A model generated the notes under the pieces. The model searched no databases, was not told the origin of the DNA, and saw only the letters and a list, made by a program, of their open reading frames with translations. Shown here in pieces: positions 24,001 through 51,927 of a DNA stretch of 56,880 nt. The position numbers were made by a program, and so were the translations under genes. The stretch comes from Vezdaea acicularis (lineage: Eukaryota): positions 62,001 through 118,880 of the forward strand of contig JAPEUI010000049.1 in NCBI GenBank assembly GCA_026025075.1, in the 5' to 3' direction. Position 1 is the stretch's first letter, and every line of letters begins with the position of its first letter.

Positions 24001-24931
24001 ACGTCTCGGGGGGGTGATGAGCCACACCGCTCACGCACGCGCAACCCTTCCTCTCTGCCTACGGGGTATTCTCGGGGTTAGCATCGGCTTAGCAACGATA
24101 TCTTTCTTTTGTCCAGCTTGAACGCGCGCTCGATTGTGTATATTCATGTCACGTGATATCTCAAGAGAGTCCTCCTCGCTTCGGGCATCGGAGTAACCCG
24201 GCTCCGCCGGCACTCACCTTTTTTCCCGCGCGAGCGCGAGACTCCGGGCGCCGAGTTCCGTGATTTCGTCTGATTGTTCAGCATTCTCAACCACAATTCG
24301 CTTTCCCTCCGTGTTATATCCGGGTTGGGTAAGCGGATATCTACTTGGCTTGGGGGAATTGGTGATGTGGTGCTGCTGCTGGGTTGCGTTGGGAGGAAGG
24401 GATCTTGTGGTTGCGAAGGGCGTCGGTTGGTTGCTGAGCCGGTTCGTGCGCGCGGGCGTGAGGTGTAGCTGGGATATAGGAGGACGGGGAATATCTATCG
24501 ATATTGCTCGAATAAGAGTTTAATGCATTGGTTGTCCTCCTCGTAATATCTACTACCTCTGAATCGGTAATTCCAAGACTTTTATCGTCGATTGTCGGTC
24601 ACACTCTGAACTCTGCCAAAACACCTCCGGTATCTATGATCTCACTACCGATTTCACCAAAGAAACATATCTATTCGAAGAAACTCGCATTTACCCCCCA
24701 CCACCACCTCTTAAAAAATCGAAATAGTACGTAAGTAAAACCTATACAACTTAATAATCACGCTGCCTCAATTTCTGCTATATTGCGCAACGTTGTGAAT
24801 TTTGCCTGTGCGCCCGACTGATACCCTCTCCTCGTGAAGCGAACTCTCTCCTTTCTGCGCCTATACATGGACGGGAGAAGGGCTGCGCGACACAAAGGGG
24901 GTAGCTTTCGGATTATTTTACGGGGGGAGGG

Positions 24932-25523: not shown

Positions 25524-25972
<449 letters not shown>

Positions 25973-26793
25973 GTTGATAAGAGTTGGGGGGTAGAAGGAG
26001 CTTTAGAAGCTGGTATGATAGTAGACTGAGATAAAAGTCTGATGTGTGAGGGTGTAGATGCGGGTATGTGGATTGCAGAGTCGTAATATTAGAAAGGAGG
26101 GAAAGCGTGGTGGTGGGGGCTCCTCGCGGTATTTGAGGTAGGCGAGTTCACGCGGAGAATCACCCGCCGTCTCCCCAGATCACGGCGGTGCGAGTTGCGC
26201 TAAACTAGATCTAGAAAATCACCCGCTTGCCCGCTTTGGGATAGCCCAATCCAGCTCCGCAGCGCCGCAACTGATCCAGGCACTGCGCCGCAGATGCGAT
26301 CGCTGGGGGTTTGACAGGCTGCATTCACTGCGCAGACTTCACCAGATCATATGAAATTGAATTCATAGATCATGGTAGTAAATTGCAGCAGTCGTGCATT
26401 CACTGCTGCTTTGTGCCTGAGCTCGCGTTGATTTGGGATGGGGTGATGGGGGCCGCTTGCGTGGTGCCGGGGCTGCTCGCCTCCCATTGGCCGGATCCGC
26501 CAGAATCAGGTCGTTTCGGCTGAGCACAAAGACAGCAGAACATGAGCAGCTTTCCAGACGCTTTTGCGCGACGCTGAATTCGACGCTAACACCGCCAGGC
26601 AAACACATCAGAATCAGCGGGCGCCCCCAGAAGATCACTCGGCTCCCACAAATCGTACTTAAACCTGTCCCCACCCACCTCTCTCGCTTCCTTTCTTCCC
26701 TCCCACTACATCTACCCTCTCGACCAACCACTACCCGTCCACCACAACTTTATCAAATTTTCATCAAAATATTCATCTCAGACATCTCTCACG

Positions 26794-27433
<640 letters not shown>

Positions 27434-43753: not shown

Positions 43754-45552
43754 CTAAAGCGGGGGGAGCGGCTCTTTCTCCTGCGCCACAATTGCAGCTC
43801 TTGCGAGATCAGGCTCACTTTTGTTTTTCCCACCTCTACTCCAGCTCTTCCAGAACCTCAGACTCCCCCTCTTGTTCAGAGCACCCTTCTCCTTTTTGTC
43901 CCTGTCCCCTCTTAGCGAGACTGCACCACCACTTGTCTTCCTTGAGTGCCCTCTTGAGCTCACCACGCTCGATACCATTGGCGTGGCCAGCTCATTTCCC
44001 GGTGTAGCAAGACTCGTCGCTTCCGCTGAGCTCCCACTTGCGTAGGCCGAGTCCAAGCCTACCTGCCGGAGCGGACTTCCCACCTGGGGAGACCTGCTCG
44101 CGGCAGCCTTCTTGTTAGGGGACTGGGCCCCACTCTTCTTCTTTCCGGCAGGTTTGAGAAGCCCGGGCAGTTGGCCGCTAAGAATACCCTTTTTTTCGCT
44201 CTTGGGCCCTTCTTTCTTTGCGTCGAGGTAATCTGACCCTTCACGAGGCTGCTGGGAGATTCCGGGACTTATCTTTGGACTCGCTGAGTTGGTGTCAGAA
44301 AGGGCGTCAGGTGATGTGGCCAAGAATCTTGTCTCGCGTTTTGGAGGCCGTGTCTTCTGCTCTGCGATATTGGATGTGTGCGGTCGTACGTGCTCGACAC
44401 TCGGTATTGGAGGATGCGCCGTTGCAGGGGCGGTAGGAAGCCTTTTCATCTGTGATTTTCGACGCTGAACAGAGGTATTGGGTGTTGCGGCAAGTTTCTG
44501 CTTCCCGTCGCCAGTTTGAGGTCTGGTGGGTGGCAGTATGGAAGGCTACTTTACATGTTAGCGAGAGATTCTTATTCAGAGCTTAGAGTAGGACGATGGG
44601 ATGTGCTCCTGATGCAAGTCTCCCCTAACATCCAAGTGGAGAGTGTAAGGCGGCGTCCACTTACTATAGCTTTCCTACTCGCGACGCCGGCACGCTTCTG
44701 GATCTCTGCTACCACGCTACCAAGCTGTTGCAGAGCAACACCCAGCACGTCACCCTTTGTTTGCAGACCGACGAAGCATCGGAACCATCCCTCGGCATTC
44801 CCCTTCATAGCCAAGTAGACGCTTTCGAGCTCTGGGGACCGGTACTCCCACTCTTTGTCCAAGCGAATTTGATATCGTGCCAGCTCTTTCGTAGCATCTA
44901 GACCTTGCTTGATGTCTCTTAGAGCATCAGTCATCGCAGCCGCAGTTCTGTTAATAATATGTTCGATCTTCTCATTCCCATCCACGATCTCGATACGAAA
45001 CTCGCGAACGGTCAACATCTCGTCGAAGACTTCCGAATGCTCAAGTGGCAGCTTCAAGTATCGCATTCTCTCCTCGATGTCGTTTATAGCCAAATCAAAG
45101 TCTTCTGTAGTTCGTTCCAGGAACCCATCAACCTCATCAACGTGTGTCTGTAATATCTTTATGACTTCCTCGTCCGACTTTGCCATCTGCTTATGTAACA
45201 GATGCACTCCAAAAGCGATCTGCGCTACTAGCTTCCACAGAGGATGGTAACGTTCCCCAGGCTTCTGCCTCCATTTCGCCGCATGAGTCTCCTCGTTTGC
45301 TTCTTGTTCTAATAAAATGCGCCGGCGCGTTGCAGAATCTATCTTCTCGGATTGTACTTTGGACGATTGGCCACTAGCATCGTTTGTCGTTTCGATCATC
45401 GACTCTTCGAAGGCGCCCTGCATGCAAGGCACTGGATGGATCGGCGGTTTGTCGGCCATGGATTCGGAGTCGTCGTCTGCATCACCTTCGGGCTCTCGTA
45501 TACTCATTAGGGTGGGATCGTCCCTGACCATGTCGTGGTGCTTGTTTGCCAT
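43754..45552 (-). CDS. Hypothetical protein (helical/coiled-coil N-terminal domain, disordered Ser/Lys-rich tail)
   Basis: 326-aa ORF (HPLWKLVAQIAFGVHLL...HVDEVDGFLERTTEDFDLA) joined in frame to the 231-aa ORF by a GTAAGT...CTAAC...TAG intron at 44546-44664. Confidence 0.75.
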
Positions 45553-47214
45553 TGTAGATTTTACTAGGAATCGGGTTCTTGAGCAGGCTGCGCATGGGGC
45601 CAGTCCGTGGTTTCACAATGCGATCGCGAATTCGAAGGATGAGACGCCCTGAACGCCGTGATCGCCCCCTGAGAAATTGAAAGCGGTGTAGAAGTACCAA
45701 AATTTGTATCTGGTGCAGGAGCACCACGCTGTTGGGAGACTGGGAGGAGTTTAGAATCCAACAGAGCGGGGGCCGGAGAGCTACAGTATCTCGGTTCTGA
45801 AGGATTGCATGGGAGTTGTCTTGTCACCAATTGGCGTAGTACAGGGGGTTAGACCATGGGACAGATCGAAAAATTGGAATGCAGCGAACCACAAGGTCAA
45901 AGAAGTGAACATGCAAAAGGGACAGGAATTGATGCTCGAATTGCTTCTGGGAAAGGCGATGAGGGAGGTCAGCGAGCTATGGTTGGCTCGCGGCCTTAGT
46001 ATGCTTATGGCATGGCGCGATTCCCGAAATTGCGCTGCAGCTCGTGCTGACCACAGTGCATCTATCGCGTCTAAAGGAACCACCACTCAATGCATTGTTT
46101 GGGACCTGATGCTGACAGGGATCTGCCACGTTCAAGTTGGGGGCTCGTTCTCCAATTTCAATGAGGGGCGACAATAAAAGGAGAAGATGAGGGGTACCCC
46201 TTAGAGCCGCAGGTACGTCGTACATCGCAAGGCAAGCAAGCTCATGGATAGGGCAATGCTAGAACGTATCCTACCAAATCTCTAGACTCTGTTTGATCTA
46301 CTCCACATAGGTGTTATGTGTGGTACCATTGTCAGCTACATCTTGACTCGCAGCGCCCCGAGTCCCAGGTGGAGTTGCATGAATTGGAGCAGCTGTTTCT
46401 CGTGAGAAGTTGTTTGCGCTTGGACAAGACTCGCCGCTCAAAAAACGACTGCAACGACAAAATTTGCCTCGACCGCAAGAATCACGAGGGACTCATGTGA
46501 TTCTAGAATTTATACGTTGCAGGTCGCAAGCCTTACGCATGACACGATCAGCCCTTTGACAATGCGAAGGATGGGACACGTGACGTGTGATTTCTCTCAT
46601 CAAGCTTCCATTAAGGTTCCGGTAACGGGGCTTCATTGGCCAAGTCACGAACCGCTCACTCACAACCACCCAATCCGAACAAAGATCTCAAGCCATTTCT
46701 ATATCGAGCTTCACGTTAGGGTCGGCTTTCGGAGAGGAGCTGACAATCGCCATGGCAAGCAAATGGAGATCACAACGGGGTCGTAGCACTCGGCGAGGAC
46801 TCCTAATTAGCAATGTCACCAGCTCCATCCAGTCGAGTGCTTTTGGAGACCCGCCGGCCCTTGCGTCGGGGTATCGCAGTGCACGGCGTCGTTTCTGCAG
46901 TGGCCTCGGGTCGGCCCTAACCTCAGGCTCCAAACGCAACGCAAAAAGTCCTGCTCATGTGACGTTCGCTTCAAGAGCCAGTCATGGCTGGCTCTGTATC
47001 TTGCTCAAAGCAGTCCATAATCGCATGATATCACTCGGAAGTATGGGTATTACGCGTCTAATTGGCCATATAGGTTAGAGATGTTGAAGGCTACTACATT
47101 ACATCTGATGATGTTAAGTTCCCGTTGTTTCTACCCCGCGTGTGGCCTGTGTCCATCCTGCATCGAGTCTAGTCGGTTGGGTACCGTGCCCCACAGGCCT
47201 AACCTCACAATCGA

Positions 47215-47972
47215 AACGCAAAATCTTCTATATCACGTGTATTTTTCGCATCTCACGTGATGTGATCGTTTCTACGTTCGACTCTGTATGAGTGTCCGCA
47301 GCAATGTCGCAGCGCCCCCGCAAGGGCTAGCAAACATAACGCGAAAACCTTTATCTCACGTGATATGGAAGGAAATGCACGTGAGGTAAAGGATCTTGCA
47401 TCGCGGTAGTCAGCGTCAAGATGAGGGCATTAGAGATCGCAGGAGTCCCGCGGGGGGAGCCGCAGAGGATGCGCAGGCAAGGCAGGGAACCACTTACCCG
47501 CCGATCGTGACGCAGGAAGTCATATCCCACGTGATACTAGAGGGTGGGCACGTGGGGAGACGGGTTTTGCGTTGTGTCGGTGAAGATCAAGATGAGGGCA
47601 TTTTGGGTCGTGTCCCGCGCAAGGGCGACGCAGGTGAGTAACACGACTGGAACGCGAAAAGTCAACTATCACATGATAAGACAGGAGAAGCACGTGAGAA
47701 TGTGGTTTTCATGTTGCGAAATGGGGTCGCAGTGTCCTCGCAGCCCGCCCGCTCGCTCCGTCTGATATTCACGACGCAAAAGGTGATATATCACGTGAGA
47801 TAGAGTGAGAGCACGTGGGCGTGGTTTTTGGCGTTGCGTTGGTGACCGTCGAGATGAGGGCATTTTGGATCGCAGGCGTGCCGTGTTCACCAAGAAGATT
47901 ATTGTGATGCAAAAGGTCACATACCACGTGATAAGATAGGGAAAGCACGTGAAAGTTGCATTTTGCGTTGCG
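47215..47972. repeat. Array of six ~62-bp dyad-symmetric double-CACGTG elements
   Basis: CACGTG pairs start at 47234/47254, 47357/47378, 47528/47549, 47670(CACATG)/47691, 47792/47812 and 47925/47946. Each pair is flanked by ACGCRAAA-like and TTTYGCGT-like inverted ends. Confidence 0.9.
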
Positions 47973-48849
47973 TTCTCAATGAGCTGCCCAACTCTATCAC
48001 ACTCCATTTAACACGTTTTCGGCAATCACGATCGCCCCCACGCCTGCGATTGGCGACTTGGGGGCTAGCGGTATTCCTCCTATCCGACTTTTTTGATCAA
48101 GCCTCCCATGCTGCACGACAGGCTGCTTTTTATCACTTTGCTAGCTTCATCGGAGGCCATGTGGCAAGCTGGGGATCTGGGGGTAGAAGGGTGTCCCTCC
48201 CCCTTTTTTTTGTCTGGCCTTTACTTGTGACCCGCGAGCGTGGGTGCTTGTCCGACGACACTTTGCGAGACAGCCACTTCAGCGATTAAGTGAGAAAATT
48301 TATCTCGAGACGTGCTTTGTGTATTGCTCGTTGAAGTAGATGTTGATCTAATCACAAAGGCAATTTGTGAGGACTTCGATATCACGTGACTTGTTGATTG
48401 GCTTGGAAGAAAATAAGGCTTCGGGGCGGATTGAGCAGCCATAAACCCCTGTGCGGTTTCTCATAATGTGGAGAATATACAACGAGTTTTTCCCGGGATT
48501 TTAAGGTGTACGGTAAGGCCCCTTCGAGTGTTCTCAGTTCTGTCTTTAATTCCGATGCGGTTCAGGGTTATTTTGGAGCCCTGGCGTGCGCTCTCCGCAG
48601 AAAAGGACATCACTCCTTCGGCTCTCTTCAAAACACAGGTCCTCCACAGAGCACAGTATCTCGCCACATTATTATATGTCATATCGTGCACTGTCACTGA
48701 CAGTCCTAGCTTCTATTCACGGAGAGCATAAACTCCTCACCGCCGCTGAGAATCCCAAATATCAAACGGGATGTACCGCCATCAACGGATACCAAGTGCG
48801 ACTGGCCAACCGGGGAATGAGGTGGCACCCGATTGGGCAGATGGGCTGA

Positions 48850-50095
48850 AGATAAGCATTTCGCACCTCTGCACGCTCCTTGTTTCTCAATTCGGTCGGC
48901 CTTAAGCCCACATGGACGTCTCCGGCAAGGCCACTGTCGATCACTACGGGGAAAATCCTCTGGCGCGTCCTGATAGCATTGTCCATTAGCTATCGGACTG
49001 TGACTTTCGATGGTGAACGATCTTGGCGTGGGTGAAGATAAACTTCAAGGACACCTCAAAGTCACGGGAGACCGAAAAATGTTAGCACTGGCGCCTCATT
49101 GTAGAGGAACTGGAATTCATCAGCCCCAGAACCATACTTTGCCTCTCCGGAGAAGCGTGCAAAACAGCCGCGGAGATGGCGTCTTATATCACAATAATAT
49201 CCGCCCCCCACCGTCGCGGGCATGGCAGCAGGGAGGCACTGATAAGGGCGTTGTACACCACACTTGGAGGCAAATGCATCTCCGGATCGTCCGGCCAATC
49301 ACACAGCGCACCCGCACTTGGAAGAACTTTACGATAAGCCACTGCTAAGGAACAGGACGCTCTGTGATGCTGATCTCCGACATCTCCTGTGACGTTCTCG
49401 GAGGGAGAGGGAGTGGCTGCGCGCGCTACGCAGCATTCCAAATCGACGCCAGTCCCGAAAGGACGCGTTGGCTTGGCGCGAGATAAGGTGCGCGCGCGCT
49501 CCCATTGGTCGCATCTACACTTTCTCCTGGTTTCGTGGCTGCTACGGCTTCGCGGCGCTCCCACGTTGTGCACCGCGCCGCAGATCGTGAGCAACCAACT
49601 GTCAGAATCTTATCCATAGCTCCTCGGCTCAATTGACCTGGATATCAGAGTTGAGCTGCCTCCTTGCTGCTAGAGTGCATGCAATTGTTCTTTTCTGTGG
49701 AGAAACGATCATCTCCGCGCACGTCGTATCTCGCCAAGTGCATTAGATCTGATCGAATAGGGTCGAGACCCCGTCCCGAGCAGTCTTGAGCCAAGCGCTT
49801 TCGGGGCTTCGTTGGACAGGACCCAAAACACTCCCATCCATCTGCCGAATGAAGCTGGCCTCCTCCAGGTTTGGCCTCTCTTATCGGCTCAAGGCGAATC
49901 GTCTTGGAATTCCCATACAGCTCATCCTGGTGTCAATCTAGACTTGGGGGAGACAAGGCGTTGTAGTGGCTCCCGTTTGGGTATGATCTCATCCGCGGAC
50001 ATGTCGAACGTGACTTTTGCCTGCCTAGCCTACCCAACCCCGGAGAAGGGAGAATCAGATCGCCAAGTCCCTCTGATATGCTAGTGTTATAAGAG
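48850..50095 (+). promoter_or_regulatory. Nitrate-transporter promoter with NirA/NIT4-type and AreA/NIT2 GATA sites
   Basis: CCGCGGAG (reverse complement of NirA consensus CTCCGHGG) at 49168-49175 and TCCGCGGA at 49992-49999. Multiple GATAA/TTATC sites (~48850, 49037, 49241, 49333, 49482, 49611, 49881) and TATAAG at ~50088. Confidence 0.6.
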
Positions 50096-50226
50096 CAGTC
50101 CCTTGTCCTTAAACAACAACAACTTCAATCCTCTTCGTACCTCCACCTCCCAACCGCTTTGTTCTAGTCGTAGCACGCGAAGCTTCCTTCCTCCAGGCAA
50201 GGTCACTTCAGAGGCATACCGCAAAG

Positions 50227-51927
50227 ATGGGTTTCAAGGCTCAGCATCTCTGGCAAGCTCCAGAAGTCAACCCTCTCAACTCCAAGGCGAGGTCGATCCC
50301 AGGCCTGAACCCCATCAACAAATATGGGCGAGTCTTCTTCTTCAGTTGGTTTGGATTCATGATCGCGTTTTTGTCATGGTAAGCACTTCTACTGCACCTG
50401 CAAGCCTTCCTTCGCTAATCCGTCCATAGGTACGCGTTCCCACCATTGGTACGTCAAGCCCCCAAAGCAGAATCTCCACGAGTGCCGTATCTCGCGAATG
50501 CACGGACCAAGACCTAACAAAAATTTACAGTTGACCGTCACCATCAAGAAGGATCTCAAGCTCTCACAGAACGAGATTGCGAATTCCAACATCATCGCCT
50601 TGACTGCGACATTACTCGTCCGTGTCATTGCCGGCCCAGCTTGCGATCGTTTCGGTCCCCGCTACACCTTTGCAGGATGTCTCCTGCTTGGTGCTATCCC
50701 CACTGCTCTTGCCGGTACCATCCACAGTGCTACGGGGCTCTACGTTATCCGGTTCTTCATCGGCATCCTCGGTGGTAGCTTCGTGCCCTGCCAGGTTTGG
50801 TCGACGGGATTCTTCGACAAGAACGTCGTTGGAACCTCCAATGCCCTGACAGCTGGCTTCGGTAACGCTGGCGGCGGGATCACATAGTGAGTACCTCATC
50901 ACCCGTGCATATCAATAGGGAAGCTTAGTTGACATTCTCATCACCTAGCTTTGTCATGCCTGCCATCTTTGACTCTCTCGTTCGCCGAGGAGAGCGCCCT
51001 CACAAGGCGTGGCGGGTCTCCTTCGTCGTTCCTTTCATCATTATCACGGCCGTGGCTGTTGCTCTCCTTCTCCTCTGCCAGGACACCCCCAACGGCAAAT
51101 GGAGTGAGCGCCAAGTGAAGACCGAGCAGAATATTGCTCAGGTGGTTGATGTCCCCGGTGGCGCCATCGGTGATCACAAGCCGTCTGTCTCTGGATCAGA
51201 GTCTCCGTCTAGCGTCCACAAGGGCATTGATGACAAGGAGGCTCAGACCGGCACCGGTACCATCGCCATAGTCGAGGAAACCAAGGGAGAGGTGATCCAG
51301 AAGCCGACATTCAGAGAAGCCTTCAAGGTTGCCTCTTCACCGCAGACGCTCGTGGTCATGTTCTGCTACTTCTGCTCCTTCGGCGCGGAACTTGCCATCA
51401 ACTCTATCCTCGGATCATACTACGCCAAGAACTTCCCGAAGCTCGGACAGACCGGATCGGGCAACTGGGCTGCCATGTTTGGTCTTCTCAATGTCCTCTT
51501 CCGCCCCCTCGGAGGCATCGGATCCGATTTGATCTATCGAAACACTAAGAACCTGTGGCTGAAGAAATCTCTTATCCATTTCTTGGCCGTCCTCACTGGC
51601 TGCTTCCAGCTGGCGATCGGTCTCAAGGACTCGCACAACACGCACACCATGTTCGGTCTCATCGCGGGCATGGCCTTCTTCCTCGAAGCCGGCAACGGTG
51701 CTGTGTTCTCGCTCGTCCCCCACGTCCACCCGTACGCCAACGGGATCGTCTCTGGGTTCACGGGCGCGACCGGCAACCTCGGCGGGATCATCTTCGCGAT
51801 CATCTTCCGGTACCATGGGAAGAACTACGGCAAGGCCATCTGGATCATCGGCTGCATCACCATCGCCATCAACCTAGCGATCGTCTGGATCCGACCCATT
51901 CCCAAGAACCAGATTGGCGGGCACTAG
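50227..51927 (+). CDS. High-affinity nitrate transporter (NRT2/NNP family, CrnA/NrtA-NrtB-like MFS)
   Basis: [25 protein letters not shown]|, CDRFGPR, nitrate signatures [10 protein letters not shown] and [18 protein letters not shown]. Introns 50379-50429, 50449-50530, 50887-50948, with a 19-nt micro-exon at 50430-50448. Confidence 0.95.

Follow-up and report, generated by a model that had tools for sequence, protein, structure and literature searches.

What is the array of paired E-boxes at positions 47215-47972 of this 56,880-base stretch of Vezdaea acicularis DNA (hereafter the window), and what has kept its motifs intact? The window is gene-dense and of ascomycete character, with genes for topoisomerase II, a RabGAP, histones H3/H4, Sas10/Utp3, EMP70, a KH protein, an MBOAT protein, an actin-family member, a methyltransferase and APC2. 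The array region has 52% GC and lies within a 4.6-kb divergent intergenic region in which no convincing ORF is found. To the left, on the minus strand and transcribed away from the array, lies a conserved hypothetical ascomycete gene (43754-45552) whose start is about 1.66 kb from the first unit of the array; its protein is 100% identical to a V. acicularis MAG protein, and its relatives at 60-72% include lichen fungi. V. acicularis itself is known solely from metagenome-derived sequence, and a search of the open-access literature for the genus Vezdaea returned taxonomy papers only. To the right, on the plus strand, lies an intron-containing gene for a NarK-family nitrate/nitrite MFS transporter (50221-51927), two exons of which score 143.9 and 186.7 bits to TIGR00886, and whose ATG is about 2.25 kb from the last unit. 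A search for solved-structure relatives of the neighbours' ORFs found none. The proximal promoter of the transporter is marked by the palindrome TCCGCGGA at 49992-49999, 229 bp before the ATG, which we take to be a NIT4-type site; further upstream, CCGCGGAG at 49168 presumably resembles a NIT4/NirA site.

The reading that we favour, with somewhat less than even confidence, is that the array is a lineage-specific, tandem-duplicated cluster of predicted composite bHLH binding modules with a cis-regulatory or chromatin-opening role. A long divergent region without a convincing ORF in a gene-dense window counts for such a cluster, and the arrangement of the motifs carries the argument further.

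The window contains 24 CACGTG against 12.1 expected, a count that 0 of 100 dinucleotide-preserving shuffles reached, and 11 of the 24 fall within 47234-47951, together with one CACATG at 47670. These counts confirm the eleven-plus-one boxes that had been reported for the array. The boxes form six pairs with start-to-start distances of 20, 21, 21, 21, 20 and 21 bp in units 1 to 6, in line with the 20-21 bp originally described. When the whole window was scanned for CACGTG-N14/15-CAYGTG, exclusively the six predicted sites were returned where 0.00 are expected, and the left-arm pattern AYGCRRRA-N10-CACRTG gave 8 matches against 0.02 expected. Six of these eight are left arms at the predicted unit starts, and the remaining pair comes from the minus strand, where the pattern picks up the right arms of units 2 and 3. 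Paired motifs so far beyond chance, both for the boxes and for the arms, count for a cluster of binding sites.

The six cores, all described on the plus strand, follow a common plan with individual departures. The ACGC motif had been placed exactly 18 bp before box 1 in every unit; the spacing is exact in 6 of 6, whereas the motif itself is not, since unit 6 begins with ATGC. Similarly, only units 3 and 6 carry the right end TTTYGCGT without deviation, and units 1, 2, 4 and 5 have mismatches or one-base insertions in it. Unit 1 (47216-47277) reads ACGCAAAA-N10-CACGTG-N14-CACGTG-N9-TTTCTACGT and is the outlier of the set, with T-flanks on both boxes and a pyrimidine-rich loop (21% purine). Unit 2 (47339-47401) has tctCACGTGata as box 1 and atgCACGTGagg as box 2, and is the sole unit in which the two N10 arms can largely pair (8 of 10 positions). 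Unit 3 (47510-47572) opens with ACGCAGGA as its left motif, carries gggCACGTGggg as box 2 and closes on the right with the exact TTTTGCGT. Unit 4 (47652-47714) carries the variant CACATG as box 1, followed by aagCACGTGaga as box 2 and a degenerate right end, TTTTCATGT. Unit 5 (47774-47840) has boxes tatCACGTGaga and gagCACGTGggc and the right end TTTGGCGTTGCGTT, and unit 6 (47907-47974), with its ATGC start, has boxes tacCACGTGata and aagCACGTGaaa and the right end TTTTGCGTTGCGTT. The purine-rich core that had been noted for units 2-6 is present, with 73-87% purine between the boxes.

The array had also been described as phased. This holds inside the units, where the two boxes are two helical turns apart, and fails between them: the periods, which are 123, 171, 142, 122 and 133 bp as first given, correspond to 11.7, 16.3, 13.5, 11.6 and 12.7 turns of 10.5 bp, none of them a whole number, and phasing is therefore confined to the interior of each unit. 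Taken modulo 3, the same periods are 0, 0, 1, 2 and 1. A protein-coding reading was rejected on this ground, as well as on the open frames over the units, which read the conserved blocks in different frames, and on the local ORFs, which have no Pfam match.

Comparison of the six units with one another separates the motifs from their surroundings. In ungapped register, pairwise identity is 0.94 for box 1, 1.00 for box 2 and 0.81 for the ACGCRAAA motif. With the anchors fixed, the N10 between ACGC and box 1 falls to 0.51 and the ten bases after box 2 to 0.31, which bears out the earlier statement that the N positions are strongly diverged. Invariant columns, counted in the register-aligned units, make up 11 of the 12 box positions and 7 of the 63 positions outside, and all eleven intact boxes are one and the same hexamer rather than varied complementary pairs. 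Homogenisation cannot explain intact boxes in units that are so diverged as a whole, and the contrast between boxes at 94-100% and adjacent spacers at 31-51% identity points instead to selection on sequence. At the edges of the array are copies that have lost their boxes, which we take to show decay without constraint. This pattern argues for selection on the motifs at the array locus.

The head-to-tail homology of the units makes the array an old, diverged tandem repeat (minisatellite-like) with a period of 122-171 bp, of which the six units are the best-kept copies. Direct-repeat families D1-D4 agree with this description of the units, and the spacers between them are homologous too (families D3, D4, D6 and D8), a feature that the original prediction had overlooked. 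In three places the spacer carries an exact plus-strand copy of the motif RAGATGAGGGCATT: after unit 2 (47418-47431) and unit 3 (47589-47602), 40 bp past the start of box 2 in both, and after unit 5 (47851-47864), 39 bp past it. A profile of the whole unit recovered the six copies at E 5e-31 to 5e-20 and one extra weak piece at 46896-46966 (E 0.0015), with nothing else under E 0.6 in the 56.9-kb window. Tandem Repeats Finder gave no report on the array, because the copies are too diverged. Decayed, box-broken copies flank both sides, at ~46933, ~47005-47012, ~48285 and ~48374 (about 46900-48400 overall). On the left, the stretch 46896-47060 holds left-arm-like sequence with CATGTG at ~46933-46961 and CGCATGATA at ~47012-47030; on the right, the pieces within 48285-48395 comprise 48285-48306 and a single box at 48383. 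One arm of a perfect 14-nt inverted repeat lies at each edge of the array, 46933-46946 on the left and 47961-47974 on the right.

Such features could also be those of a repeat family without host function. A palindromic element of foldback or MITE type, or a minisatellite with such an origin, would have multiplied locally and perhaps reached other loci, and the motifs would survive in it through the propagation of only those copies with intact ends and internal sites. We consider this origin unlikely, while recognising what the array has in common with foldback elements, MITEs and derived satellites: inverted arms, tandem units, decayed copies at both edges, the bracketing inverted repeat, and cores that are each an imperfect palindrome of 75-80 bp (133 Watson-Crick pairs, 24 G.T, 17 A.C and 34 other positions in the arms). 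It departs from them in that target-site duplications were not seen when the sequence was read by eye, that no other copy was found in the 56.9-kb window by the whole-unit profile, and that conservation at this one locus is confined to the motifs. The conserved spacer motifs lie outside the palindrome, which is therefore not a self-contained element, and without selection, copies whose spacers had drifted to 31-51% identity where they stand should have lost their boxes, as the edge copies did. Nor does the array carry the RIP signature (TpA/ApT 0.56).

DNA from related organisms bears on the same choice. Six public DNA runs from 3 studies, 4 of the 6 labelled moss metagenome, contain parts of a 10-kb stretch of this DNA, and four of them (X1, X2, X5 and X6) were compared with 46000-49000 at 80% likeness. 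An exact copy of the array is present in 0 of the 4; related strains and species keep an array at the locus, with a different unit content. Over 46695-47912, one X1 contig remains colinear with the window and differs from it by 63 mismatches and 16 gaps; at that scale the array is therefore not unstable, which speaks against a freely spreading repeat. In X5, the left-flank and right-flank contigs both run into unit-like sequence and end there. The joins between contigs pass over 315, 232 and 541 bases of the window's array, and the last of the three has 230 other letters in their place. The turnover of unit content that these joins indicate is what a repeat family would show, although some of the joints have sides of 25-31 letters, and short sides at 80% likeness can be artefacts. 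A repeat family would also account for the 46-bp piece 47561-47606, which matches four separate X5 contigs, three of them beyond the flank-carrying ones and one match being internal to an 8132-nt contig that carries neither flank. The possible extra loci fit a dispersed repeat family as well as they fit a regulatory element.

Parts of the array have no cover in X5 and X6 at 80% likeness, and these cover gaps are not interpretable. Among the substitutions listed between strains, those in the array are 47735 and 47771, both in spacer. Across the 4 runs and 3 studies, box 2 is visible in six unit-like loose ends, five of which retain GCACGTG after a run of purines while their other letters differ, and the retention of this motif amid changed letters counts for the selected-site cluster. 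A scan of metagenomes with ACGCRRAA-N10-CACRTGA-N12/13-GCACGTG gave 3 loci, each with one isolated match and 2-3 CACGTG, against a rough estimate of a few chance matches; no arrays were found with this exact pattern, which would miss diverged relatives.

The palindromic cores also raise the idea that the array is transcribed and that each unit acts as an RNA hairpin, either in a small-RNA cluster or as a repeated protein-binding hairpin within a longer transcript. We regard this as improbable. From the base upwards, the predicted hairpin would consist of a lower stem of 12 bp, an internal loop of 9x9, the CACGUG stem of 7 bp and a purine-rich loop of 15 nt. The plus strand folds at -18.3 to -34.2 kcal/mol, and better than the minus strand (-11.0 to -24.8 kcal/mol) in 5 of the 6 units, with z-scores of -1.4 to -5.5 on the plus strand and -0.28 to -5.30 on the minus strand. 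In addition, RNAalifold proposes a common 19-pair structure for units 2-6, and the purine-rich loop is strand-asymmetric and kept in relatives. Hairpin z-scores down to -5.5 weigh against a pure DNA-site reading and leave some probability to a role in RNA or in DNA structure. However, the strong plus-strand values belong to units 1-3 (-3.3, -5.5 and -4.1), while those of units 4-6 reach only -1.4 to -1.8. The mismatches in the arms (24 G.T against 17 A.C) have no clear strand bias, the CACATG of unit 4 is uncompensated in its partner box, and complementary N10 arms are confined to unit 2. No covariation beyond column composition was detected, in a test of five sequences and hence of low power: only 2 pairs differ at both partners, and the observed values were reached in 368-401 of 500 shuffles. 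Rfam gave 0 matches at gathering score in the window (best local E-values 2.4 to 3), and C/D or H/ACA boxes were not at consistent positions when read by eye.

Readings of the units as snoRNAs (C/D, H/ACA), hammerhead-like RNAs or mini-introns were rejected as well, since no consistently placed box or splice signal was seen by eye and Rfam was silent. Two identical invariant hexamers are what would be expected of a sequence-reading protein and not of pairing alone, and a single invariant hexamer with no covariation suggests that the sequence itself is recognised; on this basis, recognition of the units as duplex DNA, rather than as a folded RNA strand, is the predicted mode that we prefer.

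Which proteins might recognise the two boxes is suggested by their flanks. Box 1 is AT-flanked on its inner half in 4 of the 6 units (2, 3, 4 and 6). In yeast, according to one study (PMC3643608), GT- and AT-flanked palindromes are those of highest Cbf1 affinity, and Pho4-dependent induction is lost on them. By analogy, box 1, (A/C)(T/C)CACGTGAT, is consistent with a predicted Cbf1-type site, its AT flank being of the type that favours Cbf1 over Pho4 in yeast. Box 2 is GCACGTG in 5 of the 6 units and GCACGTGA in 3. The Neurospora crassa DAP-seq consensus is GCACGTG for NUC-1 and GGCACGTGA for the repressor NUC-3 (PMC12506109). Box 2 matches the former in 5 of 6 units and extends to the latter in 3, and is consistent with a predicted site of the NUC-1/NUC-3 (Pho4) type, GCACGTG(A/G). 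For both boxes, we infer that the binding preferences of the yeast and Neurospora proteins would carry over to those of V. acicularis.

The array has the CACGTG core and the family-typical flanks of a bHLH E-box cluster, and it shares this core with the NUC-1/NUC-3 phosphate-regulon sites of Neurospora and the Pho4/Cbf1 sites of yeast. The PHO promoters known to us have a few dispersed sites close to the gene; unlike them, the array consists of six copies of a fixed 62-bp dyad module that lies ~2 kb away, and no phosphate gene is evident beside it. The original proposal that conserved motifs and spacing with free spacers imply a selected protein-binding platform fits the identity contrast between boxes and spacers, the lack of covariation and the published-type flanks. 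Its reading of the outer motif as SCB/MCB-like does not stand: ACGCGAAA, with a CGCG core, occurs in units 2 and 4, and units 1, 3, 5 and 6 are without CGCG. An MCB/SCB or StuA (APSES) element (WCGCGWNM / ACGCGT) was rejected for the same reason, and the scarcity of the APSES/MBF CGCG core in the outer motif (2 of 6 units) also counts against the composite modules that we propose.

A predicted Cbf1-type box brings in the chromosomal readings, in which the array would be a sequence-defined centromere, a replication origin or a chromatin boundary built on Cbf1-like binding. The CDEI core RTCACRTG is indeed matched in every unit in one orientation or the other, for example as ATCACGTG in units 1 and 5 and as CACGTGAT in units 2, 3 and 6, and in this the array resembles the point centromere of budding yeast. 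The position of the array between two divergently transcribed genes and the possible presence of unit-like pieces at more than one locus in X5 would also suit a chromosomal element. In a point centromere, CDEI is adjoined by CDEII, about 80 bp of very AT-rich DNA, and by CDEIII with its conserved CCG-containing core of the TTCCGAA type. The array, in contrast, is 48% AT, and the highest AT content per 80 bp between 46800 and 48500 is 0.65, far under what CDEII needs and located outside the units; no TTCCGAA/TTCGGAA core occurs in the same interval. It is moreover six-fold, 52% GC and placed between genes of the expressed type.

Regional centromeres of filamentous ascomycetes are long, AT-rich, repeat- or RIP-degraded and gene-poor. 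Here, AT is 0.48, TpA/ApT is 0.56, (CpA+TpG)/(ApC+GpT) is 1.15 and CpG observed/expected is 1.23, with neither a RIP signature nor AT-rich degenerate repeats, and conserved genes with promoter motifs lie within 1.7-2.3 kb in a housekeeping-dense window (topoisomerase II, histones H3/H4, EMP70, APC2). The centromere that had been named first among the options is thus very unlikely, and we hold origin and boundary roles built on Cbf1-like binding to be just as far-fetched. A related idea, to which we would give a very slim chance, is that the units are a lineage-specific family of selected palindromic modules at several chromosomal sites in lichen-type fungi, a candidate sequence-defined chromatin element. 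It would act as a boundary, an origin or a kinetochore-related platform, with a Cbf1-like bHLH protein on the boxes and partners on the outer dyad and the spacer motif; to our knowledge, no sequence-defined chromatin element of this kind has been described in filamentous ascomycetes.

We return to the cluster of composite bHLH sites. Mechanistically, tandem duplication of a 120-170 bp unit would have produced the array, and selection would then have kept the motifs only. Each well-kept unit would present two CACGTG sites separated by two helical turns on one face of the DNA, with the purine-rich core between them and the inverted ACGCRAAA / TTTTGCGT motifs on the outside, followed in three units by RAGATGAGGGCATT. 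Dimers of bHLH proteins specific for CACGTG, probably joined by partner factors at the outer motifs, would bind the six modules multivalently; once occupied, the region would serve to activate transcription from upstream or to open chromatin. For box 2, phosphate status would be the obvious candidate signal.

Several observations pull the other way. The conserved blocks, which include the outer dyad, the purine core and the spacer motif, extend beyond what a bHLH site needs; a distance of 1.66-2.25 kb to either start codon is far for a fungal upstream element; and proximal NirA/NIT4-like sites, at 49168 and 49992, belong to the transporter itself. In addition, the Neurospora orthologue of the transporter, nit-10, does not appear among the genes listed as NUC-1-bound, and deletion of nuc-1 leaves it unchanged (PMC12506109). 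An orthologue that is neither listed as bound by NUC-1 nor altered by its loss counts against the proposed regulatory cluster, and a link to the phosphate regulon by way of these Neurospora data was rejected.

Another of the closest systems known to us is the cyp51A promoter of Aspergillus fumigatus, in which, according to two reports (PMC9239056, PMC4954732), the tandem duplications TR34 and TR46 multiply sites for the bHLH protein SrbA and for other factors. These duplications are of recent origin, lie close to their gene and consist of 2-3 near-identical copies of 34-46 bp. The array, unlike them, is old, with spacers 31-51% identical, units of 122-171 bp and at least 6 copies in which only the motifs are maintained. 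It extends two known kinds of element, homotypic site clusters and tandem-repeat promoter elements such as TR34/TR46, and a search of the open-access literature found no published description of such a module.

If the proposed cluster of bHLH modules is correct, the locus would offer a natural enhancer-like element that was tandem-duplicated and then worn by mutation except at its working motifs. Its grammar would be on display: two E-boxes with different flanks are separated by two turns, an outer dyad keeps a fixed distance of 18 bp, and a third motif follows at 39-40 bp. This grammar would in turn yield predictions on cooperativity and competition between bHLH factors of the Cbf1 type and of the NUC-1/NUC-3 type in filamentous fungi, and it gives a hint that a nitrate-uptake locus may be tied to regulators of the phosphate type. 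The importance of the array is lower than had been hoped at first, since the centromere reading, the main source of its interest, is unsupported. As for the nitrogen regulators AreA/NIT2, the array contains 7 GATA sites (HGATAR), compared with 2.0 on average and at most 8 per 800 bp, an enrichment that is suggestive, not exceptional.

The array, six diverged tandem units with paired E-boxes, is bracketed by a perfect 14-nt inverted repeat, with one copy at 46933-46946 (AACGCAACGCAAAA) and the other at 47961-47974 (TTTTGCGTTGCGTT). The left copy forms part of a decayed unit flanking the array, and the left arm of this decayed unit is exactly complementary to the right arms, in their extended form, of both unit 5 and unit 6. 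Furthermore, CCTAACCTCA..AAACGCAA is common to the stretches preceding this decayed unit (46912-46939) and unit 1 (47190-47221), which lie 282 bp apart. Since these stretches are alike (83% over 24 nt), their sequences suggest an older, longer duplication layer.

CpG has an observed/expected ratio of 1.23 within the array (47196-48030), compared with 0.93 for the window, and is present in every conserved motif.

Among the best-supported differences listed for the four public DNA runs (X1, X2, X5 and X6), a minority of all differences, many fall in 46057-46590 and a single one (46804) in the 360 bp immediately left of the array (46590-46950). Because the majority lie outside this listing, the scarcity in 46590-46950 may be an artefact of it.

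To the right of the array, the NarK-family nitrate transporter gene is preceded by TCCGCGGA (49992-49999), 229 bp upstream of its ATG, and by CCGCGGAG (49168-49175), approximately 1.05 kb upstream. Both are similar to NIT4/NirA sites and mark the gene's own proximal promoter.

Elsewhere in the window, isolated E-boxes at 24150 (tgtCACGTGata) and 35946 (tatCACGTGata) carry Cbf1-type flanks identical to those of box 1, the first E-box of each unit. A divergent histone pair, consisting of an H4-like histone-fold ORF (-) and histone H3 (+), occupies 25565-27375.
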